This document shows, piece by piece, positions 14,328 through 43,740 of a stretch of DNA of 64,000 nt. The notes beneath the pieces are model-generated. The model was not told the DNA's origin. It searched no databases and was given only the letters and a program-made list of their open reading frames with translations. Both the position numbers and the translations under genes were made by a program. Positions within the stretch are counted from its first letter, which is position 1, and every line of letters begins with the position of its first letter. The stretch lies in NCBI GenBank assembly GCA_000004985.1, contig GG738901.1. The stretch is one strand, 5' to 3'. Origin of the DNA: Naegleria gruberi (taxonomy: Eukaryota).

Positions 14328-14400
14328 CGCCCCACGTGGGGCTCGAACCCACGACCGTTGGATTAAAAGTCCAACGCTCTACCGACTGAGCTAGCAGGGC
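14328..14400 (-). tRNA. tRNA-Lys(UUU): tRNA-Lys (anticodon UUU)
   Basis: The minus strand reads GCCCTGC TA GCTC AGTCGGTA GAGC G TTGGA CTTTTAA TCCAA CGGTC GTGGG TTCGAGC CCCAC GTGGGGC G. This is a canonical 73-nt cloverleaf with no encoded CCA. Confidence 0.92.
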
Positions 14401-20777: not shown

Positions 20778-21362
20778 ATGGAAGACATACAGAAATTCCT
20801 ACTATCTACTCAATCAAACAATGAATTAGTAATAGAAACATTGAAAGACAGAATCAAAGAACTGGAAGCTAAACTCCCAAACAATGATCTTCTTATGGAG
20901 AATGCTCTTTTAAAGCAATCTAATGCAAACCTCAAACAACAATATGTGTTACTTTCCGATAAAATAGCAAACATGAACACCATGTTAGAACCACTTTCAA
21001 ATCCCTTATCATCTTTGGGCTCAGGTAGTAAACCTTTAAAGAAACTGACTCTTGCAGAGGCATTACTAAAAGAAAATATTGCTCCATTCAGAGGTGAATT
21101 GGCTGATGTTTTAGTCCCTCCACAAAGGAGAGAACGTCTTAGACATTGTGATTTTAATCCTGAAAATTGTTGTACATCCCTTCGTGAATACTGTAACAAG
21201 GCAACAGAAATCATGGGAGAAAGGATTTATTTTCCTGGTGAAGAATCTGAAAAGAAGAAGACTAAAAAGAAGTCTGTAAAGAGAAAGAAAGATGGTACTG
21301 AATCAGATGAAGAATCAGATAAGAAGAAGACTTCCAAAAAGAAGTCTGTAAAGAAAAAGTAA
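20778..21362 (+). CDS. Hypothetical coiled-coil protein with Lys-rich C-terminus
   Basis: A 194-aa ORF with an ATG start, a heptad-like N-terminal region and a KKKTKKKSVKRKK...KKKTSKKKSVKKK tail. Confidence 0.65.
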   Translation: MEDIQKFLLSTQSNNELVIETLKDRIKELEAKLPNNDLLMENALLKQSNANLKQQYVLLSDKIANMNTMLEPLSNPLSSLGSGSKPLKKLTLAEALLKENIAPFRGELADVLVPPQRRERLRHCDFNPENCCTSLREYCNKATEIMGERIYFPGEESEKKKTKKKSVKRKKDGTESDEESDKKKTSKKKSVKKK

Positions 21363-21466
21363 ATGGCGTTCAAGAACAAATACCTTGACTTTTTACAATA
21401 ATAAACACTGTCACTTAAAGTTTTTTCTCAATTTCCAGCATTGATTGGAAATTAAGAGTAAAAAAA

Positions 21467-24400: not shown

Positions 24401-26393
24401 ATAGTCGAGCACTTTACTTCCTCTCAACCTAGAGATAATGAGTTCTTTTGCTTTATTCCAGCCAAAATGCAAAGATTATACTTTTGGATTAGCTCAAGAT
24501 ACTCTTTACTATTTTCTCAGGTGGATATTTCATCAAGAAAGAGTGAGAAGGTCCAACAATTTTCAAATTTGACCAAGCAAGATGAGTCTAAATTCAAGCA
24601 AGTGAAAAATCATTTAGAAAGCATACACTCATCCTTTAATAATGAATTTATTGATAATCTATTTAATGGAATTCAATTACTTGACTTTGATGAGTGGACA
24701 TATTTCGAGTTAAATATCCAGGATGAAATGTGCCACAAGGTATTATCTTCCTACTATAAGAATCAATTCCTTCAATATAATACCCTACTCTCATCCAAAA
24801 TGTCCCAAAACTCATTACCGTTCATGCTTTCAACATTGTTTTCACAGGCATTGTCTTTTGAAAGGGAATGCGAGCATCATTCTATAATGATACAATCCCT
24901 GATTGGCTTGATTCCAAAATTCAGTACGAATGACCAATTTTCCAACCAAGACCAATTTTGGCTATTTAAATCATGGCTACAAGCTATGCAATCAAGTCAA
25001 GAACATTCGAGAAAATGCCTCTATGATTTCGTAATATTTACCGAGCATCTAGATCCAATTATTTATTATTTGGGAACATATTCACTCTCTGTATTCTCCC
25101 AAGATTTTGATTCGAATATCAAGGTTTTGAAAAATACCCTTTCTCAATTTTCAAAATCTTGCCTTATACCAATATCACATCTGCATCCTTGGCCAGTTTT
25201 GTTTACCTCAAAGATTTTGGAAGGATTATTTTCACTAGTTTCCATTTCTCTAACCTGGATACCAAAGAGAGATACTTCAACTAGGGAACTGAAACAGTTG
25301 TTCAGAAATTTCATAACAGAAAACGAAATACTCAAACTTAATATTACAAGACATCTAGGATTACATGTATCAAATTTGGAGACTTGGATTTTCAATTACT
25401 TTTCAAACTCTCAAACAAACAAGGAAGAACTTTTATATAATTCAAAGGAAACACTCAAGGAAATTGTATCAGATTTGGAAAGGGATTATAATTTTGGTTT
25501 AAAGTTTTTGGTAAAGGAAACTCCTCTTGCCTTACTGAACACAATGTTGAACAAAATTGATTGCAATTTTGGAGGTTTATTGATTTCAGACATGTTGATT
25601 TCACTATTTATTAGTCCAACAGCTTCGAAATATTTGGATCCATTCTTTGAATTGAAAGAAAAAACAATTGAACAGCTGCCATCTCAGATATCAATCCATT
25701 CCCAAACAATTCTTGATTATCTAGATGAAACCAAATTCTCAAATACCACAGACACCAATAGATTGTCCAAAATAATAGAACTTGTATTTGGGAGAATAAG
25801 TTCCTTACTGAACACTCAGGAATTGGGTAGAGAAATGGTTCGACTTTTTCCAACAATTACTTAAATCCCTTTTCATCCACTACATTTCATTCATTAAGAA
25901 AATAGAACACATCTCTACCGCAACAATTCCAAATCCTCAAATTAACACCATCCACCAAGATATTCCCAAAATTTTAAAAACTATTATCCATCAAATATTA
26001 GCAAGCAATCCGATTAATTTTATTGCCATTGCCGAACAAGCCATACATGGCAACATTTCAGGTTTGCCACACTTTGAAGAAGACTCCTACCAAAAAGCGG
26101 AATATCAATCATTAATTACCATAGCCCTAGTTCAAATAATTTTGGCAAATGATGAGTTAATAAGATGCATCCTTAATCCAGATAGTGAGTCTCCATGGCT
26201 CGCTTTAACAAACTCTGCTGAATTCCAAAATATACTTTCTCAATTATTGGAAAATATTAATTCAATGGCTCTCCATAGTGAGATTCTTGTAAATTCACAA
26301 AGAATCAAGCTCAACCGAATCACTCCAACAGCACTCAATTTGGCTAGAAAGTTAATTCAAAAGAAATTAATCTCTGAAAGCGCCATTATCTAA
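21467..26393 (+). CDS. Large (~1,625 aa) alpha-helical-repeat-like hypothetical protein; proposed 2 exons
   Basis: The ORF 21467-25864 stops, but the +1 frame stays open from 25812 to 26393 with no ATG (the tracked 'M' at 26064 is TTG). A phase-0 intron at 25784-25832 (GTATTT...branch-like TTACTGAAC...GTAGAG) joins ...SKIIEL to KWFDFFQQLLKSLF... An alternative is intron 25838-25898. No domain was recognised. Confidence 0.65.
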
Positions 26394-28076
26394 TCATCTG
26401 ATACAATCAAGTACATAATGTAGGAAATAATAAATATCAGCGAAGGTGTACTTGATTTGATCATTTCATAAAGAACTTTTCTATTCTTAAGATTAGAATA
26501 AATCACCATAAGGAATTGTCTAGGAGCAATTTGACCCTTGAATTTTCCCAACTTGTCATTGATCTGAATTTGCCTCACATCGCTTACACTAAATCCAAAT
26601 GCTGTCAAAATCCAATTAATCAAGGAAATGTATTTTGTTGCCTGAACTGTTTTTAACTCTGAAACTAAATCTGTTTTTGGATCATACTTCATGACAGTAT
26701 ATTGTCCATTGAAAAAGTTTGAAGGTTGTAACCAAATTGAAGGAGCATTTTGAATACTCTTTGTATGTTTTCTCTTTTGAGCTTCCATGAAAAAATAATA
26801 ACGACTATAAACTTCTGACATCATGGCTCTCTTCCAAATGAAAATGAGTCCCAAACAGAATAGACCAATCCAGAAAACATTGCTTTGTTTCCATCTATTC
26901 AATCTACTGGCAGTCAACCAAGAATAGAAAAATACAATGAGTGTAAAGTCCCAACTCGTTACAATACCAAATGAATATAATTCTGATGAAATTGGATACA
27001 AGAGTGCAGTACCAAAATTAGTCATGAAATCCAACAATAAATGAGAACTCAAGCAACATGCAGATAATGTTGTACAATGTGTAAAGCTGTTAAATCCATG
27101 CAAGCCCAACACTTTCTGAACTCCAAAACCAATGAGTGGGGATAATAATAAATTAATAGGCAGAGAATGTGAAATAGTTCGCCTAAATGTAAGACTATTC
27201 TTGTCACGTCTTTCAAGCATGGCTTTCCAATTTCTTCTTGCGTTAGTAACTGTTGGTTGAGTATCCTCAGAATCAGAATCATATTGAGATAAATTACTAG
27301 AGCTACCAGCAGGAGTCTGTGCTGCATTAAGTGAAGAACTACTGAAACTTGAAGTCATTCCACCACCAGAAGATTCCTCCTGTTTCTTATTTGTTAATGA
27401 AATAAAAAGCTCCCACAATCTATGAATTCTGTCAATCATTCTCGAAAATCCCTTGAAGAATGACAAGAAAAACGAAATGATGAATAATGCAATATCTACA
27501 TCAGGTAAATTAGCCAAAATCATTCCAACTACGTAATACTTTTGTTCAAAAGTCAAATGGGAGAAGAATCGTTTAATTCTCCTCAGAAATTTAAACATAT
27601 TCGTGCTCAACACTTTAAAGAATTGTTTGAGTGATGTTTTTCTCAATAATTGTATCTTATCCTTTCCCATCATTAATTTACTTGCTCTATAGAGTTTCAA
27701 TTATAATATTTGGATCATTATTTTCCAATCAAGGCAATACATTCCATTGTCATCATTATCCGATAACAATATTTAAATAACAATTAATAGTAAATTTAAA
27801 TAATAATATTGATGATAATAATAATAATATTATAAATTAAATTGATGATCATCAAACATACCCATTAGCAGCCATTACTCCTCCATCCACAAGTGATTTT
27901 CCAATCAAGTAGAGAAATTGTTGTTGATCGGAGGTGTGTTTCAAATGTTCACTGTGTTTGACCATTGGACTCTCAGGAATCATTCGAAATCTCTTCCCTT
28001 TATCCGATACAAAATTCCTCTCAAACAAGTATCTCGAAATGACATAACCAAATATTGAGTGAATATCTGTTAACAT
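26390..28076 (-). CDS. Multi-pass membrane protein related to YdjM/DUF457 membrane-bound metal-dependent hydrolases (2 exons)
   Basis: Exons are 28076-27862 and 27686-26390, with a 175-nt intron (GTATGT...CTATAG, phase 2) and a total of 1512 nt. Family-like strings are MLTDIHSIFGYVISRYLF, FRRTISHSLPINLLL and SSHLLLDFMTNFGTALLYPIS. The stop codon overlaps the convergent gene's stop, sharing CTAA at 26390-26393. Confidence 0.65.
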
Positions 28077-28300
28077 TTTTTTATCTTAGTTTTGTTTCTG
28101 TTGTGTAAACAATTGTTGTTTGATAATTTTAATACTTTAAATAATAAAATTAAATAATAATTATTAAATATTTATATATTATTAAATTATGGTTGAATTA
28201 TCGTGCTTGGGTCATCATCGTCTTGATCTTGAGAAAATATCGCAACTGACTCTAATATCCTAGGAGGTGAATAATAAATTAGTGCTGGTTCTCTGAATAT

Positions 28301-29406
28301 TTATTCAGTCTTAGTCTTCTTCTTCTTGTTCCAATGAGGCTTACCACCACGTCCACCAAAGCCCTTTCTCTTATTCTTATTGCTTTCAGCAAACTTAGCT
28401 TCACAGGTCTTAGCAATATACTTTTCCAAATCTTCTGGAGCCATTTCCGAAGCAACAGCTTTACCTGGAAGTTCAATCTTTCCTTCATCGAATTGTTGTT
28501 TAAGAGAATCGAAAACTTCCTTTGATTCCAATCGAAGAATAGCCTTGGTCTTATCACCATCGAGTGGGAAATCAATAAACTTCAAACCATTCTTCTTGTT
28601 GTATGGCAATTTCTTGGAGAAATCAGCAAATCCGAACTTTTCGTCACCTTCAATTCCTTGAATGTGCAAGAAAAAGTTTTGCTTCAATTCAGTTTGCATA
28701 TTAGAAACATCTTCTTGCTTCTTTTCTTGATTCTTCTTTTGCTTACTTTCTTCACGTTCCTTTCTCTTTCTATCAAAATGTTGTTGCTTGGTTTCCAAGA
28801 GGAGAACAGATTCTCCAAACTTGAAGTCAGACTTTCCAGCCAATTCATTAACAGTAGATTCAGAATCGAATTCAATGAAAGCAGATCCCTTGAATGTACC
28901 ATTCTTTTCTCTTCTGGCTCTAACACAGACAACTTTACCAAAAGGTTCAAAAAGAGCCTTGATTGAATCGAGATTAGCAACACTTTCATCGAGTGGGAAT
29001 CCCTTAGCATATAAAGTACGAGCATTGCTAGTATCAACTTCTGGAAGAGCAGTGATTCTTCTAACCAACTTTCCTTCAGCATCAATTTCCAACATGGAAC
29101 TCTTCTTCAAAGCAGAAACAATAAGATCCATATCAGTAGAAATTTGTTTCATTCTATTAAAGGAAGCAATAGTCTTAAGTTCAACATCTATTCATCATCA
29201 TCATTATCAAATTATCATCATCATCAACAATAATATCAATGTATGGGATATCGGTTAATCAATATTGACAATATAAAACACTTACATCCTTCAGGATTGT
29301 TAGCAACGAGACTTCTCAAAAATTTATCCTTTGGAAGATTACTATCACTAAAGTAGAATTCAACTTGTTCACGAATCTTGTTTGAAGTAATTTCAGCGTC
29401 AGACAT
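28301..29406 (-). CDS. La protein (La motif + RRM), 2 exons
   Basis: Exons are 29406-29286 and 29187-28301, with a 98-nt intron (GTAAGT...GAATAG, phase 1) and a total of 1008 nt. The spliced product reads MSDAEITSNKIREQVEFYFSDSNLPKDKFLRSLVANNPEGYVELKTIASFNRMKQIS..., which is a canonical La motif. An RRM follows (RTLYAKGFP...KGSAFIEFDS), then a Lys/Glu-rich tail. Confidence 0.9.
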
Positions 29407-29832
29407 TTTGGTTATTGTTGTATTTTTTTAAAGACGAAAAAACGTTCAAATTTATTTCTGCAATAACATTTGTTGAAGTTGCTCAGAAATGCATAACAGA
29501 TAATAATAAAATATTTGATGATGGTGATGATGAACATGGAGATCAAGATCTGCATGATATGGTTCGGAATGATTCGTTTTTGAAATATAACGTGTTTATA
29601 AATACATTATCATAATGATGTGAGTTAGGTAATTGTTAATTGTTTAATATTAATGTGAGCATTATTAAGGATATAATTTCAATTGTCATCCTCAATGACA
29701 TTTCATGATAGGACTTCTTGGTTCACTACACTTTTGTTGGAATAACTATCTAGAGCTTGATCTCATTTTCATATCTAATCTTGGTTCCCTATAATATAGG
29801 AACAGCTAAGCAAAGCTTATTGCCTAAACAGC

Positions 29833-31136
29833 TTAGTTTTGATGTTCAGGGTGATTATGTCTCGAGTAGAGTGGTTGATCATCTATTTCGTCAGATAAAT
29901 CTTGTATATGAAGACCAGCAAAGGTACTTGAGCTCAGTGTACTCAATTTGATAACTTGCATTTTGCTGAGGGAGATTTCTAATTCTTGTTCAATTTCCTT
30001 TGAGGATTCCTCAGTGATGGCATTCTGATTTTGTAACCAATTGATAAAGTATTCTTCACTGGAGCAAGTGAGGATTGAGAAAACTATTCCTCTATAGTAG
30101 GACCAAAAGTAGTAACTGCCAACAAATATTGGTGTCATGGAGATGACAATTCTGATTGGAATTATTCTGTGAAGTGATAAGAGCCATGTCAGTAAGGCAA
30201 TAATAATACTAGCTACAATAAGAATGAGTCCACTGGTTTCAGTTGCTGCAGAACTGAACTCTTCAAGTACTCTGGAGAAAGTGAATATTGTAAATAAATT
30301 ATTAGTGAACACTTACTTTCTACTAAGAATAATCATAATAACAATCAATACCAAGTAAAAAATTGTAAATGAAAAATTGACAGCAACAGAAGTGACACTA
30401 TATCTACACTTGTCATTGCTAATATAAATTTCCTCAATTGCACTCGCAATAATACAGTAAATTATTACAGGAATCAGCAAGAGCACAATGAAAACCATGT
30501 TAATATATTTGAGTTTTCTCTTTGTTTTAAATCCAATCAAGACAATGAGTTGTCTTGTGAGCAATGTGCAAATCCAACCAAACTATTTCAATTTTTTAGA
30601 ATAATCCATTGCGAAGAAAATACTTACAAATCCAATATTGAAAAACCAAATTGAAAATGTCACACACAATCCCTTTGTTGAATTTGCGAGTAATCCATTA
30701 TTGAACTGTAAAATTCGAAAGATTAAGAATGTATCATTTCTAATACTGAAAAATATGAAATACCTACACAATATCCAATAAACATGACTGCATTGAAGAA
30801 TAAAGTTTTTGCCATTAGAAAGGGATGTTTCGAACGGACAGCAATCTTCTTGTACTTGGTAAAAACCAAAGCCATAGCAACGAAATTACACAAAATCATG
30901 AAACAACCAACAGAAAAAGCAACAATATCTGCAGGTGTTTGTGATGGTACTGGTTTAAATCCGAAAGGGTTTAGAATAGATGAATTAGAGGAATCTCCTG
31001 AATATAATGGTTGATATTGTTCCGTATCAAAATCTCCAAATAAATTAAACAGAGTTGATAGGAGTGGTGTTTGTTGTTCTTCTCCTATCGAATGAAATGT
31101 TAAATGTGTCATGTCATCCACAGTATGTTGAGACAT
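29833..31136 (-). CDS. Seven-transmembrane receptor-like protein (4 exons)
   Basis: Exons are 31136-30768, 30705-30628, 30582-30317 and 30271-29833. The introns are 62, 45 and 45 nt (GTAGGT or GTAAGT ... AG), all phases are consistent, and the total is 1152 nt. The spliced 383-aa product has a ~70-aa N-terminus with NSS sites and seven hydrophobic helices by eye. It ends in an acidic C-terminal tail. The family was not assigned. Confidence 0.75.
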
Positions 31137-31269
31137 TTTTTATTATAATTGTTTGATGGGCTGACAAGCTTGATTACAATACTTTCGAATATTGTGATAC
31201 ATACATTTATTATGTATAGTGGAGAACTAAATACTGATTAAATATTAAATACATGCAGAATATCTTTGA

Positions 31270-32250
31270 TTACAGAACAAATCTTGGTACGTTCTCATTT
31301 TCCTGTGCTAAATAATTTATATTATCAATGTTATTCATTGATAACATGTTTCCAATATTAAATTGAGTAAGGTCTGTATTCTGAGAGAGGAGAAATGTCA
31401 GAATAGTTTCAGAATCATTTGGTCCTGTATATTCTGTGAAATAATCAGAGAAGGGATACTTTTCCAATTTTTCCTTAAAGAGATCAAGCTTGGTAAAAAC
31501 TATTGAAACATCCGCTGGTATATATTCTGAATAATTTACAAATTCACTAAAATTTTGTAAAGCCAACCAAAGACAATTAGCTCCAGAAATTGAGTCTGTT
31601 AAATTGTAATCTGCAAGGGAAATTAAATAAATTACTCGTGTCATGGTATTGTCAAAATGAGAAATCCACTTTCGTTTCTCATTTCTTTGTGGACTAGGAT
31701 CAATTAGTTTACTTGTTTCAAATGAAAATTCATAAATTGATGACTTGGAATGAGGTATTTTAGTTTGTAAAAGATCATGAATTGTAAAATCTGCATTGAT
31801 TGCTTGTAATTTGGCAATGAAATTCTCAGAAAAAAAGTATCGAATATTTTCCATATATCTGAAATGATGTGAAATGAATTCCAATTCCTCACTCTTTAGC
31901 ATTGTTAAATATTTCATAAATTCGATCATGCTTGATGTGAAAACTCCACTTTTCCTAGCTTTTTTAATTTCCTCATTTAAATTACTGAATTTAAAATCGA
32001 CTATTTTGAATGTTTGCCAACAGATGTCCAAACATCGAATGACATACTTTCGAATATGCAATTCTCTTTCTTCCGCATTCATCATGCTATTAGTTTCTTT
32101 CGATAGATGATAAATTCCATGTCGAAAGGTTGACTTTCCACTTGAACATGCTCCTAGAATTAGTATTTGTTTTTTGCATGGTGTAATTCTGCGTCTCAAA
32201 GCAGTATCAATAGCTTGACTGTGAAGTTTCTGCTGCTTTCGTTTACTCAT
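31270..32250 (-). CDS. Heterotrimeric G-protein alpha subunit-like protein with degenerate GTPase motifs
   Basis: A 326-aa ORF starts at ATG after an A-run. It aligns to G-alpha-i across ILILGACSSGKSTF (P-loop kept), IDPSPQRNEKRKWISHFD (versus DVGGQRSERKKWIHCFE), VIYLISLADYNL and SIVFTKLDLFKEKLEKYPFSDYFTEYTG (versus IILFLNKKDLFEEKI...YPEYAG). Confidence 0.85.
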   Translation of the reverse strand: MSKRKQQKLHSQAIDTALRRRITPCKKQILILGACSSGKSTFRHGIYHLSKETNSMMNAEERELHIRKYVIRCLDICWQTFKIVDFKFSNLNEEIKKARKSGVFTSSMIEFMKYLTMLKSEELEFISHHFRYMENIRYFFSENFIAKLQAINADFTIHDLLQTKIPHSKSSIYEFSFETSKLIDPSPQRNEKRKWISHFDNTMTRVIYLISLADYNLTDSISGANCLWLALQNFSEFVNYSEYIPADVSIVFTKLDLFKEKLEKYPFSDYFTEYTGPNDSETILTFLLSQNTDLTQFNIGNMLSMNNIDNINYLAQENENVPRFVL

Positions 32251-32623
32251 TTTTTTCTTTCGTGGTTCTGCAAAAAGTTCTTGTCTTGTTCACTATAAGT
32301 AAGAGAAAGTAAGTTTGACTACAGCTCTGAAAAGTAATCTATTCGCAAATGAGGCAGTTTTACCACATTCCTAAATGAAAATTTTCTTTCCAAAAAAACA
32401 TTTGTTGAATTTTGGCTCCTTTTACCCAGGAAAAATGAAAGTCCTTTAAAGTGCATTCCGACTTACTCACATATCTGTTCGTTCATTATTATCTGATCTA
32501 TTTACCACATGCAATGAACCTCTTAAGAATCCATCAAGTGATAAAAAAACAAATAAATTGATCTCAATCATTGTAGAGGATTAAAATAATATTGTTTTTA
32601 TTCAATTACTATTTTTAAAATCA

Positions 32624-35600
32624 ATGTTGAACAATAAATCTGAGCGAAGTGGTGATGAAAAAGAGGAGGATCTTGTGATTCAGAATCCCTCTAACTGTAA
32701 ATGTAATAATCACAACAATGGTAAGCAGCATCTTGAAGGGACAAATTTAATGCAACAACCACAACCACTGTTGGATGATGATGTGAATGATATTCTTCAA
32801 TTATTAACAATAGAAAGTTGCAGTGGAGGTTGTAGCTTTGATTGTCTTAAATTCGAAGAGAAGGAAGCAGTCGAAGAGGATACCTGTAATCCAATGTCGC
32901 AACAACATCTTCCTTCCGATATCAAATCGGAACCAATTCTCCTACTGCTTACTGATAAGAAGGCAACATCAACAATGGATCACAACGTAAGTTATCATCA
33001 AACATGTAAATTAACGTGCCATTTGGGCGATTTGACTAATTCAGAAGTCGTATGCATCTAACAAACAAGGCGACAATTTTCATCATGAAAAAAGAACAGA
33101 CAATATCATCAACAAGAAGAACAAGGCTTCCTCATCATTAGGCAGTGCTTTTAAAGAAGATTTTGTAAATTTTGTTTCAGAATCCACAAGTTCCTCTTAC
33201 ATTCCGCAACAGCCATTCACAACATTATATTCGAAAAGAATGAAGGACGAAGAGATGGTGGAGAATAATCAATCTACTGTTAATGAAGATGGAATCAAGA
33301 CATCATCTGAAGCTAAACCAACACAATTTAACCACTCCTCACATCATCAAAGGCCTCATCATATTAACAAGGGTCTCGGAGAAGAACAACAATACAAATT
33401 TCCTTCATCTATTACACCACTTTCACTGGCCAATATTCATGCCAATGCATCGACTAACTTACTGCTAACTTCATCAACATTATTTAATTCTTCAAGTGAA
33501 TCACATGGTGGTGGAACCATTTCGAGAAGCTCCTCCAATACTTCAATGGATAGCTCCTCCTATTCACTCTTGAATAATCACCATCATCTAACCACATCTT
33601 CCTCACCCTCTGATGGTTTTCACTCAACTCTAAAATCCCTAGAAAATGTTCTCCCTCCATTCTTTACTCCATGCGTGCCACCTCATGCATCATTCAATTA
33701 CTATTCAGAACATTATTGGGGAGAACATCCCTTATCACTAACCTCCTTCTCTCCAATTCTTCATTATGAAAAGAAGTCATCTCTAACGATTATTTGTCGA
33801 TACACACCACAACAAACTAGGAATTCTCCAAGAAGGGAGAGACCTTCCTCTCAAAAAGAATTAATAGAGAATGAGATTTATTGTCTGAAAGTTTCACTGG
33901 ACAAACCATCCATTCCAAAGCTGGAAAGGGATGCAGAAATTTCTCGATTCTTGACCAATGAATTTTCTCAAGTGTTGGATCCAGCACAACAGGTTATTGT
34001 CAGTACTAAGGCCTATTTGTCTGATTATTTTATTCTCGTGAGGGAGTTTATTGATTGTGTTTCGTTGAGATCATTTATTGATAGATCGAAAACATATGCT
34101 AGAGCAGAACCAATTACTGATGAGAATTTTGAAACCTTAACAGATGATACTGTAACACTTCTCAATGAAGAACAACGAGTGAAAGAAAACATTACAATAT
34201 TGGAAAGTAATTTAACACTTGCTATTTCTATTTGTATGAGTGTTGCTCAACTGCATCACTCAAGAGTTTGTCATGCTGACATTAGGCCAGAAAATATAAT
34301 TGTAGAAGGACCTAAATGCAATATAAGATTGATTGATTTTGGAAAGAGTACATTCCTCCCTTTGGAGCATCCATTTTTATATACCGATAAAATTATTGGT
34401 AGTCAAATGTATTGTGCTCCAGAGGCAACAGGAAAGATTCCAAAACCAATAGGTTTCCACACTGATATATATTCACTTGGATTTGTTCTCTTTGAGTTAT
34501 TTTCCAAAGAACATCCATTTACCAAGTTTAGGACATTAGATTTCGTATTTCAACATTTGACTCAACAGCCAGAGTCCTTGTTTCAAAATCTAGCGAGAAG
34601 GTCTTTTATATCAGCCAATGAAGGAAACCTATTCACAGCTGCTACTAAAGCAATTTCAAGACTAATTACCAAAGCAATTCAAAAATCTATTGAGAAACGT
34701 TATTTGAGTATTTTTGGATTGAAACGAGATTTGGTCTACATACAGAATGCTATTCAACTAGAAGATATGGAAGCTCTTGAAAATTTTCAAGCTGGTATGA
34801 ATGATGTTCAAACAACTTTATCCATACCTTATGGTGTATATGGTAGAGAGGAAATTTTCAAAAAATTGGAACTGAAACTTGAAAATATGATGGAATCTAG
34901 TGAGCCAACGATTGTCCTTCTGGGGGGCTATAGTGGCATAGGTAAATCATGTATTGTTAAGGAGTTTAGGACAAGAAGTAAAACAGCAATACAATTCTTT
35001 GAGGCAAAATACGATCAACATATGAATGTACCTTACTATGCCATTATTTCCATATGTAAACAAATTATTGGCGACGTTCTTGGAGAATCTGAATCAGTGA
35101 TTAAGGATTTCAGATTCCAACTTGGTACACTTATCAATTCAGATCAATTAGAAATGTTGAGTGATGCAATTCCTGACATGTCATATTTATTTACAACTAA
35201 TGCAACCAAAAAGCATACCTCCCCATCAATGGGAGATCAGAATGGAGAGCGTATGAAGCTCTTTTCACAAGGAAGTAAGTAATATTTTGAATTTAACATT
35301 ATAACAATATTATATTGCTCAGTTATTCATCTCTTTAGTGTTTATACTCATTTAAAGAAAAAGAGGTTATGCATTTTCTTGGATGACTTGCAATGGACTG
35401 ATTTTGATAGCATGAAGCTATTGAAGGAAATTCTTGGAACTGGTTCTTGTGATACTGTTCCTCTTTTAATTATTGGAGCATATAGAAATAACGAAGTGGG
35501 AAAGGACCATCCTCTATTTTACTTTTTAGAAAATCTCAAACTTAAAGTGAACATTGAAGAAATTGAAGTTGTTGAGTTGACAGAAGATCAATCTAACATG

Positions 35601-38600
35601 ATTGTCTCAGAGTCTTTAAGGAAAAATAGAGCTGAAACAGAAGAACTAACCAAAATACTCTTCTCTAGGACGAATGGAAACCCCTTCTTTTTAAAGCAGT
35701 TATTGGCTGGTTTATTTAAGGACGGATCTATTTATTTCGATACTCAAACAGATACTATTACATGGGATAAAAAGAAAATAGAAAATGCAGAATACTCTGA
35801 AAATGTTATTGACTATCTCCTTGGACATTTGGAAAAATTACCAAAACAAACACAAGATATTCTTGCATTTGCTTCTTGCTTTGGAAATAAGTTTTCCAAT
35901 GAAGACATGCTCCACCTACTCAATCAGCAACAAGAAGAAAAGATAGACTTGATGCAACTTAAAGAAAGATTGAACTATGCGGTGAAGGAGGGATGGATTT
36001 CAAATATCAATTCTGGTAATTTACGATTTAATCATGATAGACTCCAACAAGCTGCTTATGAATCACTGCCTTTGAATGAAAGGTTGAGAATTCACTATAC
36101 CTATGGTAAGCAGCTTCTCAAAAAAGCAGAAGAAGATGATTCTTTGGAGGAACGTTTATTTGATATAGTTGTACAGTTAAATCACAAACATAATGATCCT
36201 GCTTTCTTGGAGAATAGAGATGAGAGAAGATTACTCATTGACCTCAATAATAGAGCTGCAAAGAAGGCTTTGGAAACATCATCTACAGATAAAGCCATTG
36301 GCTTTGTTTATATTGCAAGGCAAATTCTAGAACACGAACCAGACTGTTGGAGTGAAGAAACTTATAAGTTGGCTTTTGAGAGTTTACTAATTGTTGGTAA
36401 TTGTAACTATTCTGTAAATATAGAATTGGCAACCTCTCTATTCATGGAAGCTATTCAAAAAGCTCAAAACAAGACAGATCTTTATGAGGCATGCAACCAT
36501 GGATTGATGGCCTATCTTTCACAAGGAAAATATGAAGATGTGTTTAAAATTTTGACTGATCATGTATTTACTACATATGAAGAGTTGAATTTCCTTACTC
36601 AGGAGCATACTGTTGAATCCTTGACAACATGGATACTTAACAAGATGAAATACATGAAAGAACATGTGCTCGTTAATTTTACTCAAAAATCTGACATTCT
36701 CAATTTGCCAGATATTGATGATTTGGAAAAGTGGCATCTTATTTGTTTGCTCACTCAATCCTGTCCTGCTGTTTTTCATATGAATAACTCACTCAGCAAA
36801 CACTACTTTATGATTATGATATTAATATCGTCTGATATAGTTTTAAATAATGGCATTACTCCTCTTTCCCCATTGTTAATTTCAGTCTTTGCATGGTCTT
36901 GGTGTAATTTTGAGTTTTATCCTCAGATGAACATGTTCTTAGAGGCAGGATTAGAGATGGAAAAGACTAGATTCAGGAATGAGCATGAATTGGCAAGTTG
37001 CACATTGATGAAGTTGATGAGTTATTACTTTTCGCCAACAATTAACCCTCTTGAGGTGTGGAATATATCCGAGGAAGCCTTCTTATTGTCTGTGAAATCA
37101 AAGAACAAACACTATGGCGGTTTCTCTATTCTGTGGTATCCATTCCATCACTTATTCTATAGCCACGGAGATGTAAAGACTTCTATTGGATTGAGCTTGA
37201 ATTCAATTGAGATTTTCAAGAGAAATGGAAATGTTATGTTGATGGATGCCAGTAAAATGATACTGGAATTGAAATATGTTCTTTCAGGAGATGTAGACCA
37301 TTACCTGCCAACGTATGTAAGCCAAGTGAAGGAATATCCATTCTTTAGACAAATGCACTACTCGTTCAAGGGAATTTCACTCTATTTCCAAAATGATATT
37401 GAAAAATCTTTCAAGTGTATGGAAAAATCGTATGATTTTAGAGAAGACTCTGTTGGTATGTGTTCAAGCTGGATTGATTTAATCTTCCTAGGTTTAATCT
37501 CAGCTATCTTTTTGAGAAGTGCTCAAGAAAAGATTGAAAAAGCCCAAGAAATACTGAAATATTCTATAGAAAGATTGGAAATGATTTCCCAAGCTAATTC
37601 TTCTGTTTTTCTTGCTCCTTTGGAGTTCATAAGAGCCGAGACATTGTACTCAGAATATTGTAGAACAGGTGTCGAAAATACTAGAAAAATCATTTCTCAC
37701 TACAGAAAGAGTTATATTATGGCTGAAAAGGAAAGAAACACCTTTTTAGCTAGGCTGATTAATTTGAGAACAGGAGAGTTTTACAACAGTCTAGGTATGG
37801 ATGATGGTATTAGTGGAAACTACTTCCTTAGAGCTATGGAATCTTTTGAACAGTTTGGTGCTTCCATCGTTGTTGATTATATTTTGGAGAATTATTCAGG
37901 TCACATCGATGGCTATTCATCATTTAGTAATAGAAATCCTGAACAAGTATTCTCTAACACTTCTCTATCTGATGAAACAACAGATCACTCTCTTGCTGGA
38001 GTAACAAAGAGCAGAATTTCTGAATCAACAGAATTGGATTTTAGAGAGATTTTCATTTCAATTCTGCCAATTCTTTCAGAACAAACGTTATCACCAAGAT
38101 GTTGTTTGATTTTGAAGAGAGATTCAACAGTTTATGTAGATGCCGAATTTAATGCAGACCTGAATTCTATTGAAGCACTTTCGTCTACCAAACAATTCGA
38201 AAATAGTGATTTGGACAAATTTTCAGATTTATTCCCTCTCAAGATGATTCACAGAACTCTAAGATCCAGAACAGAGCAACAACTCGTATGGAATGACAAT
38301 GAGAAAGAGTATTACTTTGTGAAGAATGTAGTGGCCTCTGCTTTATCTATTCCTATCATGAAGAAAAAGACAGTCATAGGTATGCTTTTTATTATTATTT
38401 TATTTATATTATTTAATGTATTAAGGTTGTATATACTTGGAAAATAAGGAAACGAAGGATGTATTCACAACTGAAAAAATTAACCTTGCCAAACTTATCA
38501 TCTCGATCAGTTTGGACAATGCTGGAATTTTCACATCTATTAACAAATCCTATGCTAGGTTTTTACCTGCTGAATTCTTAAAGTTGCTTGGAAAGAGTCA

Positions 38601-39423
38601 CGTAACTAAGGTAAGGTTGGGCGATGCAGTTTCTAGAGAAATGACAGTGCTCTTCAGTGATATTTATGGATTTACAGAGATTATGGAGGGACTTTCTGCA
38701 AAGGATGGCTTTGCTTTTATTAATCTACTATTGAAGAGTATTGCACCTCCAATTTCAAGAAACTCTGGATTTATTGACAAGTTTGTTGGTGATGGAATAT
38801 TGGCATTGTTTATTGAACCGCAAGGAGCTGTCACTGCAGCTTTAGAAATGATTTCAGAATTGGAAGTTTTCAATAGTAGAAATAATACCAATGTAAAGTT
38901 GGGAGTTGGTTTGCATCATGGTATTGTTCAACTTGGTACGATTGGATATGAGCAACGATTGGATGCTACTGTTATTTCAGATACTGTGAACACAGCTAGC
39001 AGATGTGAATCTCTCACAAGAACTTTTCATTCACATATTCTAGTTACTAAACCAGTTATGGATGCTGTTACAGTGCCACACAGTGTGATAAGTACCGAGT
39101 TGGGTAAATTCATGCTGAAAGGAAAACACATACCTCATCAAATTTACAATATCGCTTCTAAATCATGGAAAGGAAGTGGTAGTGCTAAAGAATTCGCTTT
39201 ACTAAGCAAAGTTATTGATCTCTTCTCCAGGAGTGAATTTACCGAATCATTTGCCCTCGCAGAAACAATTCTCAAGAATACAAAGAACAATACCATTATA
39301 GCTGCATGCAACATGTATAAGGAAGCATCAACATTATACGGATCAGTTGTTTTACCAAGTGAATGGCAAGGTGAAATTCGGTTGACCAAGGATGGAGAAG
39401 TCAGAGAGTACTTTTCAAAATAA
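32624..39423 (+). CDS. Multidomain signalling protein: Ser/Thr kinase-like domain, AAA/STAND-type P-loop NTPase, helical/TPR-like region, GAF-like domain, class III adenylyl/guanylyl cyclase (4 exons, 2,215 aa)
   Basis: Exons are 32624-32986, 33045-35274, 35323-38379 and 38426-39423. The introns are 58, 48 and 46 nt (GTAAGT, GTAAGT and GTATGC ... AG), and the total is 6648 nt. Kinase strings are VCHADIRPENIIV, IDFGKS and MYCAPE. The P-loop is LLGGYSGIGKSCIV and the Walker B is LCIFLDDLQWTD. The GAF end, restored by splicing, is TVIGCIYLENKETKDVFTTEKINLAKLIISISLDNA. Cyclase strings are MTVLFSDIYGFTE, IDKFVGDGILALF and ISDTVNTASRCES. Confidence 0.85.
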
Positions 39424-39582: not shown

Positions 39583-42039
39583 ATGAAAAAACGACATTCA
39601 ACCTTTTCCACCACAATCAATCATCGAGATTTGATTAAATCATCTAATTTTAATTCATTATCTACTAGTAATATTCAATCATCATCATCACCAATATTGA
39701 GCACTACTTCTAGAAAAGGCTTCCGAGAACGACCACTCATCAAATTCATATTAAAACAACGTTCCAAACGATTGCAACAACAAGGCTCTAGTGAGTTTGC
39801 TGGTGCGGAAGTGGAAATTTTGAAGGCTTGTTGGAGAAAAATAGAGGAAGAGGAGATGAAGGACTATCGAGAAAATCTCTCGAATCGATTGGGGTTTTAT
39901 TTTGATGATGAGGAATTGTTGGCCATGTTCGGAAATCAATTGATGAAGGATGAAGAGGAACTACAGCAGAGGACGACAATGGATACTACCAACACTGAAC
40001 CAAGTTCGGCTGGTGGTGCTACTCTTGACAATTCTTCACTGAAGAGTGGTGACAGTGCTCGTTCATTGACAAGTTTCGGATCTGACTCGAAACTAAATTC
40101 GCCAATTAGTCCCAACCTCGACAAGAAGCATTTGCAGTCAACTTCATCGACCAAAAGCTCCACTTCATTTGCATCCTTCTCTGGTGCACCATCATCACTC
40201 ACACCAAGCCCAAACATTGAGGAGAACAAAAATCTTTCCTACCTCTACGATATTCATACTTTTCCTAGCAAGCTGAATCTGATACCAACCATGCATTATA
40301 ATGTGTTGGATGTTGTTGAGTTGTCCTCTGTACAGCAAATTGTAAATATAACAAGTCCTTCTTCGGAGATTGGGATACTTAAAGATTGTACAAATGATTC
40401 TTCTCCTACTGTAAATATTGAATCAACCACTTTTAGTCTCGAGATTTTAGATAGTTTTATTACTGTTGATTCTTTTGAAGATTTTTCAAATCCTTCATAT
40501 AATCCACTCAATATTAGACATTTATATTGTGATTATTGGTCCAACAAACTAGAATTCAAACAAAGGATCAGTAAATCTTCTCTTACTTCAAACAATAAGA
40601 AGGAAAATGAAAAATCAAAAAACTATATACCATTTGAAGAATTGGAAAAATGTAGAAATTGTACAGAACTCAAATTGAACAATAACAAGATTAGATCTCT
40701 AGATTCTAAACATTTTACCAATTTTGCACACTTGACAGAATTGAATCTATCTTCGAATAGAATGTCTAAAGCAAGACTGCCTGAGGATATTTTCTCACAT
40801 ATGCCACATTTGCAGAGGCTTTCTCTCGATTATATGGGTCTTAAGACTCTACCAAAATCAATTAACAAATTGGTAGAGCTTACCTACCTTTCACTTTCCT
40901 TTAACAAATTGAACACTTTCAACTTGCTACATGGAAAAGACAGACACTTGAATGATTTTTGGCCAAAATTGACCAATTTGGAGTACTTGAATTTGTCTGG
41001 AAATAGATTGAATAGATTTCCTTCAGAAATTTGTAATTGCAAATCATTGGAATTTTTGAGTTTGTCCAACAATAGAATAATTAACGAGATACCAAAGGAA
41101 ATTGAAAATCTCAAAAAATTAGCAATACTCTTCTTGAATGGAAACAAAGTTACTGCTCTTGATATTAATAGAAATTTGGAATTTTTAGAGAATTTGACCC
41201 ATTTGGAATTGGGTCACAATCCTAATATCCATGTGGTTCCACCTCCTGTTTACAATTTAACCAAATTAGAATCACTCTGTTTGAGCCATCTAACCATTAG
41301 TCATTTATCGGATGATATTGGAAAATTAAGAAATTTGACTCACTTGGATTTGTATGGCTCCAAACTAACTGGTCTTCCAAAGGGTATTTCACAGCTTATC
41401 AACCTTAGGAATTTGGATATGCGATATTGCAGAGGTATCAAGGAGTTCCCTATTGAATTGTTTGGTCAAAAAGTTTCAAGTAGCACTATCACTACTACCT
41501 CTCCAATGAAATCCCTTACTAGATTGAGTCTTAGCTATACAATGATAGAGAGCATTCCTGAGGATATTTCCTCTCTCCAGAGTTTACAAGCACTTTTGGT
41601 GAATGACTGTCCCTTGCTCGAAGAAATTAAGGGTATTGACAAGCTTGTCAATCTTGTAGAGTTTGACATCAGTCGTTGCATCTCCCTTGTTGAGCCTCCT
41701 TCTGATGTGTGTGAGAGAGGTCTTGCCCACATTAGAGGATATCTGAAAGAAAAGGACGATGGACCTTCTATTTTTTTAAAGTTTATTGGATCAGTATTTG
41801 GTGGAAATACCTCAAATAATTCCTCCACCAACAAGAAGAAACTACCTTCACCAATAGGCACAGAAAACAACCTCAAAGTGGAACACAATGAATTACTTGT
41901 TGCCTCACCAGTACCAAGCATTAATTCTGGAGATGATGATGGTGATAGTGATTCTGATGATGAGATTGGCGCATCTAAAAAGAAGAAACCAAGTCCAAGT
42001 GGCAGTACTGTCAAGTCATTATTTTCCTTTTGGAAATAA
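39583..42039 (+). CDS. Leucine-rich repeat protein (typical/SDS22-like LRRs, SHOC2-like array) with low-complexity N-terminus
   Basis: An 818-aa ORF starts at ATG after an A-run. About 15 repeats of the form LxxLxLxxNxLxxLPxxI run from ~residue 360. The tail is acidic and basic. Confidence 0.85.
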   Translation: MKKRHSTFSTTINHRDLIKSSNFNSLSTSNIQSSSSPILSTTSRKGFRERPLIKFILKQRSKRLQQQGSSEFAGAEVEILKACWRKIEEEEMKDYRENLSNRLGFYFDDEELLAMFGNQLMKDEEELQQRTTMDTTNTEPSSAGGATLDNSSLKSGDSARSLTSFGSDSKLNSPISPNLDKKHLQSTSSTKSSTSFASFSGAPSSLTPSPNIEENKNLSYLYDIHTFPSKLNLIPTMHYNVLDVVELSSVQQIVNITSPSSEIGILKDCTNDSSPTVNIESTTFSLEILDSFITVDSFEDFSNPSYNPLNIRHLYCDYWSNKLEFKQRISKSSLTSNNKKENEKSKNYIPFEELEKCRNCTELKLNNNKIRSLDSKHFTNFAHLTELNLSSNRMSKARLPEDIFSHMPHLQRLSLDYMGLKTLPKSINKLVELTYLSLSFNKLNTFNLLHGKDRHLNDFWPKLTNLEYLNLSGNRLNRFPSEICNCKSLEFLSLSNNRIINEIPKEIENLKKLAILFLNGNKVTALDINRNLEFLENLTHLELGHNPNIHVVPPPVYNLTKLESLCLSHLTISHLSDDIGKLRNLTHLDLYGSKLTGLPKGISQLINLRNLDMRYCRGIKEFPIELFGQKVSSSTITTTSPMKSLTRLSLSYTMIESIPEDISSLQSLQALLVNDCPLLEEIKGIDKLVNLVEFDISRCISLVEPPSDVCERGLAHIRGYLKEKDDGPSIFLKFIGSVFGGNTSNNSSTNKKKLPSPIGTENNLKVEHNELLVASPVPSINSGDDDGDSDSDDEIGASKKKKPSPSGSTVKSLFSFWK

Positions 42040-42137
42040 AGTGTTGAGTAAATAAAAACTGATGAAACATTTAGACATCACCAAATATAATGTCGTTTTT
42101 TCCCGTAAATGAGAAATATTTGCATTAAGAACAAGAT

Positions 42138-42209
42138 TCCCGTGTAGTCCAATGGCTAGGATACCTGGCTTTCACCCAGGAGGTCCGGGTTCAATTCCCG
42201 GCATGGGAG
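42138..42209 (+). tRNA. tRNA-Glu(UUC): tRNA-Glu (anticodon UUC)
   Basis: The sequence is TCCCGTG TA GTCC AATGGCTA GGAT A CCTGG CTTTCAC CCAGG AGGT CCGGG TTCAATT CCCGG CATGGGA G. This is a canonical 72-nt cloverleaf with no encoded CCA. Confidence 0.92.
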
Positions 42210-42214
42210 AATCG

Positions 42215-42220
42215 TTTTTT
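42215..42220 (+). terminator. Pol III oligo-T terminator for tRNA-Glu
   Basis: A T6 run begins 6 nt after the tRNA 3' end (atcgTTTTTTattttt). Confidence 0.7.
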
Positions 42221-42271: not shown

Positions 42272-43690
42272 TTATTCAGTACTTGGATTGTAAAATTCGT
42301 TAATGGAAGAGTGAGAAATAGATGCCACAAACTTTTCTTTGGTAATTTCATAGTACGACTCGACAGAATTATAATCTGCATCAGGATTTTTTGCTAGCAT
42401 GTTGGCATTGGTGATAAGATGATGCATTAGAGAGTCTTTCTCTATTAAATTGTCCTGAATCATTTTGTGAACCATTCCTGAACTGAAATAATTTGTTGAA
42501 TCCCATCTATTATGTGGTAACTGTGTTAAAATCTCTAAATAGAGAAGACCTCCAACAATATCCAATGTAAATATATTCTCCAACAATGACACATATTTCA
42601 CAGATAACCTTACCAGTTTTGGAAATCTGCTTCTAGTAATTCCTTGTAAAATATTCTTCTCTGCGGTATCATCTAAAAATTGAGGCATTTTGATTGTCAA
42701 ATCAATTACGTTTTGGAAAGAACAGTCCTCTAAAAATTTAACATTCGTCCAATCACTATCTCCACCTAAAATTAAGGATAGAAAAAGGACACTGTTTGGT
42801 ATTTGAAACTTTTCACTTTCCTCCTGTGATATTTCTATTGACATGGCAATAAATCTGTTTGAAAACAACAAATTATCTTTTGCATCTGAAGAGGAAACCA
42901 TCAATCCAATAGCATTGCTATTCAGAGTACTACTGAGAGATGTGAGTAAACCTAGGTTCATTAGTTGGCATTCCTCAAGAGTAGAAAACTCATTATAACT
43001 CGAATTTCTCTCACTATCAAAGTATGATATCATTTCCAATGATAAAATCAATGCCTTATGTAGAAACAACTCATAGCTGCCAAGGGAGAGGTTTTTCTCA
43101 ATCCTTTGCATCTTTTCATTGTCCACCATTAACTTGGCGAATCTATGATCAAATATCTCCTCAACATCCCAGTCGTAATATTCATTTTCCATTTGATTGA
43201 AATCTATTGTAAAACCATACGTGCTAAAAATGTTGTTTAATTCAACAATGTTGCGATATTCACTATTTACGCCCATTTCAGTTCTTTCAATCAACTTTTG
43301 TAAGTTAGCCATTTTCAACGTCTCTTCTTCATTAATATCACCCCTGGCGAGTTGAAGCCCACTATAAGAGTCATATCTTCTCAAATACAGAGTCATTTCA
43401 AATATGTTGGAAACTTTCAGCCAAAACTCTTGCATTTCCTCATCGTTTAATAATTGATCCCTAAGAGATTTAGAAACACAACAACAAACTGCATGAACTG
43501 CTCTTACCTGTGTCAATTTAATATACGAAAATAAGTATTGGTCGTAAAATCGAAAATAGACACACGGATACATTTTACCAAAGCGGCTGATAGGTCCTAG
43601 AAGATATTCAAAAATACTAAATTTCCACAGGTCTGTGGGAATATCCAACAAGGAAGAGTGTGGGTGATGGGGTTGTTGTGATGTGAACAT
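42272..43690 (-). CDS. Hypothetical protein with possible N-terminal F-box-like motif
   Basis: A 472-aa ORF starts at ATG after an A-run. The string LLDIPTDLWKFSIFEYLL lies near the N-terminus. No other domain was recognised. Confidence 0.7.
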   Translation of the reverse strand: MFTSQQPHHPHSSLLDIPTDLWKFSIFEYLLGPISRFGKMYPCVYFRFYDQYLFSYIKLTQVRAVHAVCCCVSKSLRDQLLNDEEMQEFWLKVSNIFEMTLYLRRYDSYSGLQLARGDINEEETLKMANLQKLIERTEMGVNSEYRNIVELNNIFSTYGFTIDFNQMENEYYDWDVEEIFDHRFAKLMVDNEKMQRIEKNLSLGSYELFLHKALILSLEMISYFDSERNSSYNEFSTLEECQLMNLGLLTSLSSTLNSNAIGLMVSSSDAKDNLLFSNRFIAMSIEISQEESEKFQIPNSVLFLSLILGGDSDWTNVKFLEDCSFQNVIDLTIKMPQFLDDTAEKNILQGITRSRFPKLVRLSVKYVSLLENIFTLDIVGGLLYLEILTQLPHNRWDSTNYFSSGMVHKMIQDNLIEKDSLMHHLITNANMLAKNPDADYNSVESYYEITKEKFVASISHSSINEFYNPSTE

Positions 43691-43740
43691 TTTTTTTTCA
43701 GTGTCGAACTAATCCAAAGTTCATATTTACAAAGGTGCAT

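Follow-up and report, generated by a model that had tools for sequence, protein, structure and literature searches.

The pathway that couples a G-protein-coupled receptor (GPCR) to Gs or Gi and a membrane adenylyl cyclase in animals is among the closest described systems, with a receptor, a transducer and an effector that act in series; in its mammalian form, Gs and Gi act on the C1/C2 pseudo-heterodimer of membrane cyclases with 12 transmembrane (TM) segments. Three genes that represent, on paper, the same three tiers lie one after another in a 64,000-nucleotide stretch of contig GG738901.1 of Naegleria gruberi (assembly GCA_000004985.1), which is referred to here as the window. They are G1 (29833-31136, minus strand), which encodes a seven-helix receptor-like protein, G2 (31270-32250, minus strand), a divergent member of the G-alpha family, and G3 (32624-39423, plus strand), a soluble multidomain protein with a class III cyclase domain. 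Compared with the animal pathway, the trio has a degenerate transducer and, instead of a 12-TM C1/C2 enzyme, a soluble and presumably homodimeric cyclase. Physical linkage of receptor and effector is known in protists from the GPCR-adenylyl cyclase fusions of oomycetes, called 'GPCR-bigrams' (PMC5784254). Those are gene fusions, whereas the N. gruberi trio consists only of an adjacency, and an unconserved one.

An earlier note on this DNA had suggested that the three genes form a co-regulated or co-inherited signalling cassette. The analysis described below does not support a cassette, because the adjacency is not conserved where it was examined, G2 has lost both its switch and its receptor-contact tail, and G3 is an autonomous soluble sensor-cyclase. 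Probably, G1, G2 and G3 are functionally independent genes that stand side by side through a coincidental, lineage-specific juxtaposition. They are members of three very large, lineage-expanded signalling families, and a local rearrangement in the N. gruberi lineage would have placed them next to each other.

The orthologue of G3 in Naegleria lovaniensis (P0003, 49% identity) was examined together with its 10-kb flanks (locus L001), and neither G1 nor G2 was found within 10 kb on either side of it by tblastn, tblastx or unfiltered phmmer. Upstream, the window segment 18176-20110, part of the gene at 17495-20122, matches by tblastx the L001 gene that ends 505 bp before P0003. What lies in N. 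gruberi between that gene and G3 is a 12.5-kb block (20123-32623, with no strand of its own) for which tblastx against L001, the gene calls of L001 and Pfam reveal no N. lovaniensis counterpart. Its six genes encode a protein of 194 amino acids (aa), a 1465-aa protein, a YdjM-like membrane protein, a La/RRM protein, G1 and G2. In L001 the orthologous flanks abut across positions 9495-10001 and the whole block is missing; a search for repeats flanking it, which would be the sign of a mobile insertion, gave short chance matches only. On the other side of G3, the LRR gene at 39583-42039 is inverted in N. lovaniensis, with a UvrD-like helicase next, and the 478-aa open reading frame (ORF) at 42275-43708 has no counterpart at L001. 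The G2-G3 junction was examined in N. lovaniensis only, and it is absent there.

On the side of G1, the homologue of Willaertia magna (L005) is flanked by SPRY-like and glycosyltransferase-like genes, with a PPR gene nearby and no G-alpha neighbour. The heterolobosean-like environmental contigs L010/L011 and L007/L008, with a guanine-cytosine (GC) content of 0.37-0.39, carry a G1 homologue that is 54% identical and stands beside a PPR gene, with no G-alpha ahead of it; in L010 and L011, the matches cover the four exons of G1 in their proper order. In a third environmental contig type, L012, the G1 homologue begins 30 nt after the end of an unrelated ORF, and a distant G1 paralogue of N. fowleri (L006) adjoins Vps53, both without a G-alpha neighbour. 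Unfiltered phmmer searches for G-alpha remnants beside the homologues of G1 and G3 in other taxa yielded noise only. Among the G1-homologue loci compared, the G2-G1 tandem recurs in a single case, an 893-bp environmental contig from ENA (L009, GC 0.31). There, a homologue of G2 (aa 207-316, 50% identity) is followed immediately, in same-strand order, by one of G1 (64% identity), and the spacer of ~100-180 bp is comparable to that of N. gruberi. Overall, a PPR-repeat gene is found next to or near the G1 homologue in L005, L007, L008, L010 and L011, and not in N. gruberi, and it looks like the ancestral neighbour of G1. Willaertia and the higher-GC contigs have this 7TM-PPR arrangement in common, and for that reason the tandem of G2 and G1 seems to be a derived state, restricted to N. 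gruberi and one close relative.

Taken over related genomes, the adjacency to which the earlier note had attached importance is therefore not conserved for G2-G3, as judged from N. lovaniensis, and is kept for G2-G1 in L009 alone. Its claim of co-inheritance is contradicted by a P0003 without G1 or G2 within 10 kb and by G1 homologues that mostly lack a G-alpha neighbour.

Two further observations concern these loci. The gene that precedes the G1 homologue in L010 (7200-8618) has a stretch of 36 aa in common (61% identity, E 9e-13) with the window ORF 48897-49922, which lies 18 kb from G1 on the opposite strand; this match may be the trace of an older neighbourhood that was broken up in N. gruberi. 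In L006 (10001-17291, from N. fowleri VFQX01000013.1), the distant 7tm_3 homologue of G1 is ~1.7 kb away from the gene of a 1225-aa protein with a weak RGS match, a proximity that may well be due to chance, given the roughly 107 RGS-domain genes of that genome.

The transducer of the putative pathway is indeed a G-alpha homologue, as had been noted, although its switch motifs are degenerate. The single ORF of G2 (32250-31270) encodes 326 aa with a Ras-like and a helical domain, and matches the Pfam G-alpha profile (PF00503) with 151.6 bits over aa 10-296 (profile positions 3-302 of 333); its matches in the PDB are Go, Gi and Gq chains (E about 1e-15). Its motifs, all on the minus strand, were compared by alignment with these chains, with human G-alpha-i1, whose numbering is used for the P-loop residues, and with a canonical protist G-alpha (P0002). 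The P-loop (32128-32154) reads GACSSGKST, against the canonical GAGESGKST, and retains the pattern GxxxxGK[ST] with Gly42 replaced by Cys and Glu43 by Ser. In switch I (31741-31773), LLQTKIPHSKS stands for VLRTRVKTTGI, which turns the arginine finger into Lys, the Mg-binding Thr into His and the Gly into Lys. Switch II (31651-31701) reads DPSPQRNEKRKWISHFD, against the canonical DVGGQRSERKKWIHCFE; here DPSPQ takes the place of DxxGQ, so that the gamma-phosphate-sensing Gly of DxxG becomes Pro and the catalytic Gln is retained, and the remainder of the G-beta-gamma/effector face, including the Trp, is well conserved. The G4 motif (31483-31497) is FTKLD where LNKKD is canonical, and the same replacement of Asn by Thr is present in the L009 homologue (TKFD). 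The C-terminal tail (31273-31380, aa 291-326) is ~12-17 aa shorter than that of a canonical G-alpha (alignment A1); the G5 (TCAT) motif cannot be aligned, and ~17 residues appear in the alignment to be deleted over beta6/TCAT. The N-terminus, MSKRKQ, has no Gly2 and hence no Met-Gly acylation site. The helical domain is well preserved in the alignment. An AlphaFold model of G2, built from a two-sequence alignment, reached a predicted local distance difference test (pLDDT) value of 42 and was discarded, and the structural statements on G2 made here come from alignments.

In short, G2 shares with canonical Gi/Go/Gq and with G-alpha 1-13 of N. fowleri the Ras-like and helical domains, the P-loop GK[ST], the catalytic Gln and the switch II Trp; in contrast to them, it lacks the Arg finger, the Mg-binding Thr, the DxxG Gly, the NKxD Asn and a recognisable TCAT/beta6, and its C-terminus is short and unconstrained. 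Given the mechanism of G-alpha proteins, changes of this type should abolish Mg-GTP-driven switching and GTP hydrolysis, and both should be lost in G2, with the face for G-beta-gamma largely intact. The C-terminal tail helix (alpha5) is the main receptor-contact element of a canonical G-alpha, and the poor conservation of this tail in G2 argues against a classical coupling between G2 and G1.

The loss of these motifs does not look like simple decay. P0002 is canonical at every one of the positions listed above and nevertheless shares KWISHFDN and SLADY with G2, and G2 thus seems to have arisen from a normal heterolobosean G-alpha from which it has since diverged. In the comparison of N. gruberi with L009, the core of G2 (aa 207-288) shows a proportion of nonsynonymous differences (pN) of 0.24 and of synonymous differences (pS) of 0.71, the latter saturated, with a ratio of nonsynonymous to synonymous substitution rates (dN/dS) of ~0.13; exon 1 of G1 gives similar values (pN 0.21, pS 0.67), and past aa 289 the pN of the G2 tail rises to 0.48. 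As the values of the core are low and similar to those of G1 exon 1, the comparison of the two sequences indicates that the G2 core is under purifying selection and that G2 is a functional protein, not a pseudogene. Few relatives of G2 were retrieved: a word-based homology search returned G2 itself and one protein with 33% identity, and a metagenome scan with the alignment of G2 and its L009 homologue gave no confirmed relatives. In L009 (nt 2-334), an in-frame stop is found at the equivalent of G2 residue ~289, beyond which a weaker similarity resumes; it could be a genuine C-terminal truncation or a sequencing error in a low-coverage assembly.

For a G-alpha without its switch there is a described precedent. 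XLG2 of Arabidopsis is a 'decoy' G-alpha that lacks the residues for nucleotide binding and hydrolysis, and binds G-beta-gamma and RGS in a nucleotide-independent manner (bioRxiv 10.1101/795088). By functional analogy, G2 would have no receptor-triggered GTP switch and might act as a nucleotide-insensitive 'decoy' or scaffold that binds G-beta-gamma or RGS proteins. The XLGs are plant-specific and carry a large N-terminal extension, whereas G2 has the bare size of a G-alpha and comes from a heterolobosean expansion. A G-alpha paralogue that appears to be kept by purifying selection despite a lost switch is thus a possible protist counterpart of the plant 'decoy' G-alphas.

The first tier, G1, is a receptor by its fold. 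Its gene model, rebuilt from the sequence, has four exons (31136-30768, 30705-30628, 30582-30317 and 30271-29833) separated by three short GT..AG introns, each with in-frame stops, and a product of 383 aa. G1 itself matches the Pfam family 7tm_3 with E 5.4e-7 and 30.0 bits, under the cut-off of 33.5 bits, and its homologues P0018, P0029, P0034 and P0037 exceed this cut-off with 43.9-53.6 bits. From 1.84 billion proteins, an exhaustive HMMER search retrieved no more than 21 representative relatives; among those of full length, that of Willaertia magna (42% identity) is the best, and others come from Anaeramoeba (with the source name 'gaba-b receptor'), Dispira, Diphylleia and transcriptome sequences. 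Phmmer of G1 against PDB sequences gave nothing meaningful, a metagenome scan with an alignment of close homologues gave no confirmed relatives, and a chimeric query of G1 and the 1465-aa protein matched only the N. gruberi 1465-aa protein, with no match for G1.

An AlphaFold (AF2) model of G1 calculated from the family alignment (pLDDT 77.6, predicted template modelling score 0.72) has seven helices (68-93, 105-125, 134-169, 176-197, 212-240, 244-268 and 275-305), a hairpin in the second extracellular loop (ECL2) and a C-terminal helix. With the family alignment (A3), these helices delimit a seven-transmembrane core at aa 68-305 (30070-30935, minus strand, a span that includes the three introns), and the basic residues, judged by eye, sit in the predicted intracellular loops. 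Of the two cysteines of the TM3-ECL2 disulfide, Cys137 in TM3 is invariant in the family, and Cys208, located in the modelled ECL2 hairpin, is nearly so; the Arg at the end of TM3 (Arg159) is near-invariant, and a further Arg stands at position 278. The FNE motif that precedes TM6 in class C receptors is found in several relatives and reads FSS in G1, and by eye no TM7 motif of the PKxY type is evident in G1. Ahead of TM1 there is a tail of ~66 aa with no domain match and no Venus-flytrap ectodomain, and the C-terminal tail is acidic and Ser-rich. In a fold search with the model, every top match is a GPCR, class C receptors are the nearest and GPR156 is among the closest folds, which led to the rejection of a transporter as an alternative identity. 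The model firmly places G1 as a class C-type (GABA-B/GPR156-like) GPCR fold without an ectodomain, and the proposal of the earlier note that it is a 7TM receptor-like protein, and not a transporter or another non-receptor, agrees with this fold and with the 7tm_3 scores of its relatives.

GPR156 and the TM domain of GABA-B share only 9-13% sequence identity with G1. GPR156 is likewise a class C receptor without an ectodomain and has been solved in complex with Gi/Go; the Venus-flytrap domain is absent from GPR156 and from class C members of the GPRC5 type. A tiny family of class C-type receptors that lack the ectodomain exists in heteroloboseans and a few other protists. G1 might sense a small ligand inside its helical bundle, or be constitutively active like GPR156, and would signal through the ordinary G proteins of the cell.

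The alternative that deserves most attention, unlikely as we judge it, is that G1 and G2 form a dedicated pair of receptor and atypical G-alpha, whose tandem has been kept by selection, and that G3 is an unrelated neighbour. G2 would then be a permanently bound adaptor of G1, or a subunit that presents G-beta-gamma to it. The same-strand, short-spacer order of G2 followed by G1 does recur in L009 at a distance where synonymous sites are saturated, both cores are under purifying selection (pN/pS about 0.24/0.71 for G2 and 0.21/0.67 for G1), the switch II residues of the G-beta-gamma interface are retained, and GPR156, with a fold near that of G1 and no ectodomain, was solved with Gi/Go. However, the support comes from one contig of 893 bp, from a relative apparently closer than the taxa without the pair, and inherited synteny explains it. 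The G1 homologues of four other taxa or contig types have a PPR neighbour in place of a G-alpha, so the pairing is derived, and the C-terminus of G2 is short, fast-evolving and, in L009, interrupted by a stop. A single fused or read-through G2-G1 gene was also considered and is ruled out by a spacer full of stop codons.

G3, the third member of the trio, was likewise rebuilt from the sequence (exons 32624-32986, 33045-35274, 35323-38379 and 38426-39423, plus strand), and its product has exactly the 2,215 aa that had been given for it. The first ~430 residues (window 32624-33900) are of low complexity and without a domain match; the similarity of the N. lovaniensis protein starts only at aa 318, and exon 1 is not conserved there. 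A PknB-like Ser/Thr kinase follows (33981-34703, aa 434-674; Pfam Pkinase, 80.9 bits), with a non-RD HAD in HADIRPEN, DFG, APE and the beta3 Lys in YCLKV; its N-lobe is divergent, weakly matched, interrupted by an insert and has no clear Gly-rich loop, and its best PDB matches are bacterial PknB kinases. An AAA_16 ATPase of the STAND type comes next (34836-35474, aa 719-915, across intron 2; 84.5 bits), in which Walker A (GGYSGIGKS) and Walker B (CIFLDD) are both intact, and a long helical region extends from it to about 38039. The GAF-like domain (38040-38496, aa 1771-1907, across intron 3) scores 16.4 bits, below the cut-off; a GAF is recognised at the same position in the N. lovaniensis orthologue (21.5 bits) and in bacterial homologues (43-49 bits), and the segment aligns with the C-terminus of the GAF of P0009. 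Of the domains previously listed for this protein, then, kinase, AAA_16 and cyclase are assigned by Pfam, and the weak GAF is supported by its position in homologues.

The class III (IIIb-like) cyclase domain (38635-39129, aa 1954-2118; Guanylate_cyc, 56.6 bits) was aligned with the photoactivated adenylyl cyclases (PACs) bPAC and OaPAC. In register with them are the metal-binding Asp residues of FSDI and KFVGD, the Lys of KFVGD, the Thr of DATVISD and the Asn and Arg of VNTASR, among them all the residues to which attention had been drawn earlier. With the handle helix that precedes it, the catalytic domain finds its best solved-structure matches in bPAC/OaPAC (E about 3e-17), and membrane adenylyl cyclases match it weakly (E 1e-6 or worse). 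In class III enzymes, Lys with Asp or Thr denotes an adenylyl cyclase, and Glu with Cys a guanylyl cyclase. Because its Lys/Thr pair aligns with the Lys/Thr of bPAC, G3 is predicted to be an adenylyl cyclase, with ATP and not GTP as its substrate; a guanylyl cyclase, which was also considered, is ruled out by the presence of Lys/Thr instead of Glu/Cys. The sensor module is where the two kinds of protein differ, BLUF in the PACs and GAF, STAND and kinase in G3.

Except for the N. lovaniensis orthologue, all significant relatives of G3 with a source name or a genomic context are bacterial, and they include an Archangium protein, a Sericytochromatia protein, P0004 and P0009. The last two have the identical order Pkinase-AAA_16-GAF-cyclase, and BatA, YfiO, TruB and the RNA polymerase omega subunit are among their contig neighbours. 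G3 thus resembles the bacterial sensors in which a kinase, AAA_16 and GAF precede an output domain (named at NCBI 'trifunctional serine/threonine-protein kinase/ATP-binding protein/sensor histidine kinase'): PknB-like kinase, AAA_16, helical region, GAF and class III cyclase come in the same order, and identity with these sensors, which include P0004 and P0009, is 24-31% across long stretches. Unlike them, G3 belongs to a eukaryotic nuclear genome, has its orthologue in N. lovaniensis and contains three spliceosomal introns, and its product has a low-complexity N-terminal extension of ~430 aa, a weaker GAF and a C-terminal extension of ~100 aa. A bacterial-type kinase-STAND-GAF-adenylyl cyclase has, in other words, become established as an intron-bearing gene of Naegleria. 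On one bacterial contig (L002, 10001-20304), two genes of this architecture, each for 1717 aa, stand in tandem with a 4-nt overlap of their ends, an arrangement suggestive of a recent duplication.

In the soluble G3 protein there is one catalytic domain, at the C-terminus, and neither two six-helix membrane domains nor a C1/C2 pair. To our knowledge, bacteria have no heterotrimeric G proteins, and because the same architecture occurs in bacteria, the design of G3 is one that works in organisms without them. G3 would be a homodimerising class IIIb cyclase that forms cyclic AMP, and its output may be controlled in cis by its own GAF, by the STAND ATPase with its helical repeats and by the PknB-like kinase.

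It is against this background that the complete cassette has to be judged, in which G1 activates G2, G2 regulates G3, and the three genes are co-inherited and co-regulated, the latter through a bidirectional promoter shared by G2 and G3. The three tiers are physically contiguous, G2 and G3 diverge across a 373-bp spacer, a rough estimate gives such a trio a low chance expectation, G1 has a GPCR fold and the catalytic site of G3 is complete. Nonetheless, we consider this reading very unlikely. The G2-G3 adjacency is absent in N. lovaniensis; GTP-dependent switching is improbable in a G2 without arginine finger, Mg-binding Thr, DxxG Gly and G5; and G3, soluble and of bacterial architecture, has a single catalytic domain, which implies a homodimer and not a C1/C2 enzyme of the Gs/Gi-regulated type. 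Moreover, the partners experimentally shown for Naegleria G-alpha subunits are RGS-RhoGEF and 7TM-RGS proteins (PMC9283941). The succession of receptor, transducer and cyclase suggested by the earlier note breaks down on two of its members, a G2 without switch residues and a G3 that is a soluble cyclase of the bacterial type. A shade less probable still is a version limited to the N. gruberi clade, in which G2, as a nucleotide-insensitive pseudo-G-alpha dedicated to G1, belongs with G3 to a recently assembled, co-regulated cassette of receptor, adaptor and effector. If a cassette did exist, it would be a rare eukaryotic gene cluster that encodes receptor, transducer and effector, and it would offer a route to pair orphan protist GPCRs with G proteins and cyclases.

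That G2 is a functionless, decaying relic of a G-alpha duplication, and its neighbourhood meaningless, is very improbable as well. The loss of several catalytic motifs, the in-frame stop of the L009 homologue and the very small number of detectable relatives would fit such a relic, but 326 codons have stayed open in DNA of 34% GC, where stops are frequent, the core has a dN/dS of ~0.13 against L009, and both the helical domain and switch II have kept their sequence well.

The preferred reading, three independent neighbours, has to be weighed against several observations that speak the other way. The G2-G1 tandem has been kept in L009 despite saturated synonymous sites (pS about 0.7). N. gruberi and N. 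lovaniensis are far apart, with a general erosion of local synteny between them (tblastx; PMC9928731), so that the loss of the adjacency in N. lovaniensis is weak evidence against a function in N. gruberi. The loss of beta6/alpha5 in G2 is read from a sequence alignment, the structure prediction having stopped at pLDDT 42. Finally, the trio is rare by chance. Under random gene order, the expectation for consecutive trios was approximated as 6abc/N^2, with 30-60 receptor-like 7TM genes, 13-40 G-alpha genes, 80-108 cyclases and ~15,700 genes, this gene number and the upper cyclase figure being those that the 2010 N. gruberi genome paper is said to contain. This rough estimate, which draws on family counts for N. 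fowleri and for the genus, gives ~0.001-0.006 trios of 7TM, G-alpha and cyclase per genome in any order, and, for adjacent pairs, 0.13-0.55 (G-alpha and cyclase) and 0.05-0.31 (G-alpha and 7TM).

A trio is therefore improbable beforehand, but this one was singled out post hoc in a scan, and there is nothing remarkable about the pairs. The families concerned are large: 80 cyclases and 13 G-alpha subunits are known in N. fowleri, besides 28 7TM-RGS proteins and another 79 RGS proteins (PMC9283941), the genus has at least 81 cyclases (PMC9928731), and a lineage-specific diversification of G-alpha has been described in N. gruberi (PMC3971589). Where a genome has ~80-100 cyclases, numerous paralogues of G-alpha and very little space between genes, neighbourhoods that look meaningful come about without any function. 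The gaps of the trio, whose reported lengths were reproduced from the sequence, are 133 bp of AT-rich DNA from the G2 stop to the G1 start (31137-31269, minus strand, between genes in same-strand tandem) and 373 bp between the divergently transcribed G2 and G3 (32251-32623, no strand), a length that hinges on the predicted G3 exon 1, which N. lovaniensis does not conserve. Other intergenic gaps across the window run from 35 to 776 bp, and those of the trio, which fall inside this range, are ordinary for the N. gruberi genome.

As regards annotation, the three genes proposed earlier are all borne out by the rebuilt models with the coordinates given above. For the product of G2, NCBI has an N. 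gruberi 'predicted protein' (P0001), from a 309-kb scaffold, with 100% identity; exact-sequence look-ups of G2 and of the 1465-aa protein gave no record. Self-matches at 100% in the protein collections were obtained for G2 and for the 1465-aa protein (P0017) and not for G1 or G3, which appear to be absent from the public N. gruberi protein set, so that their models would be new.

The rest of the window, which has a GC content of ~34%, contains no paralogues of G1, G2 or G3. Its remaining genes encode, according to Pfam, two LRR proteins, PARG, a La/RRM protein, a YdjM-like protein, a helicase, a decarboxylase, a serpin and a DUF4116 protein, and among these Pfam-annotated genes there are no further ones of G-protein signalling. 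Upstream of the gene for the 194-aa protein (20778-21362), three direct copies of TCACTnnTnGAAAGAAGGCT, 43-49 nt apart, occupy positions 20588-20699 and may be a promoter element. Two tRNA genes are present, tRNA-Lys(TTT) at 14328-14400 on the minus strand and tRNA-Glu(TTC) at 42137-42210 on the plus strand, and the segment that holds the latter (42123-42219) matches positions 17046-17142 of the Willaertia locus L005 by tblastx with 72% identity.

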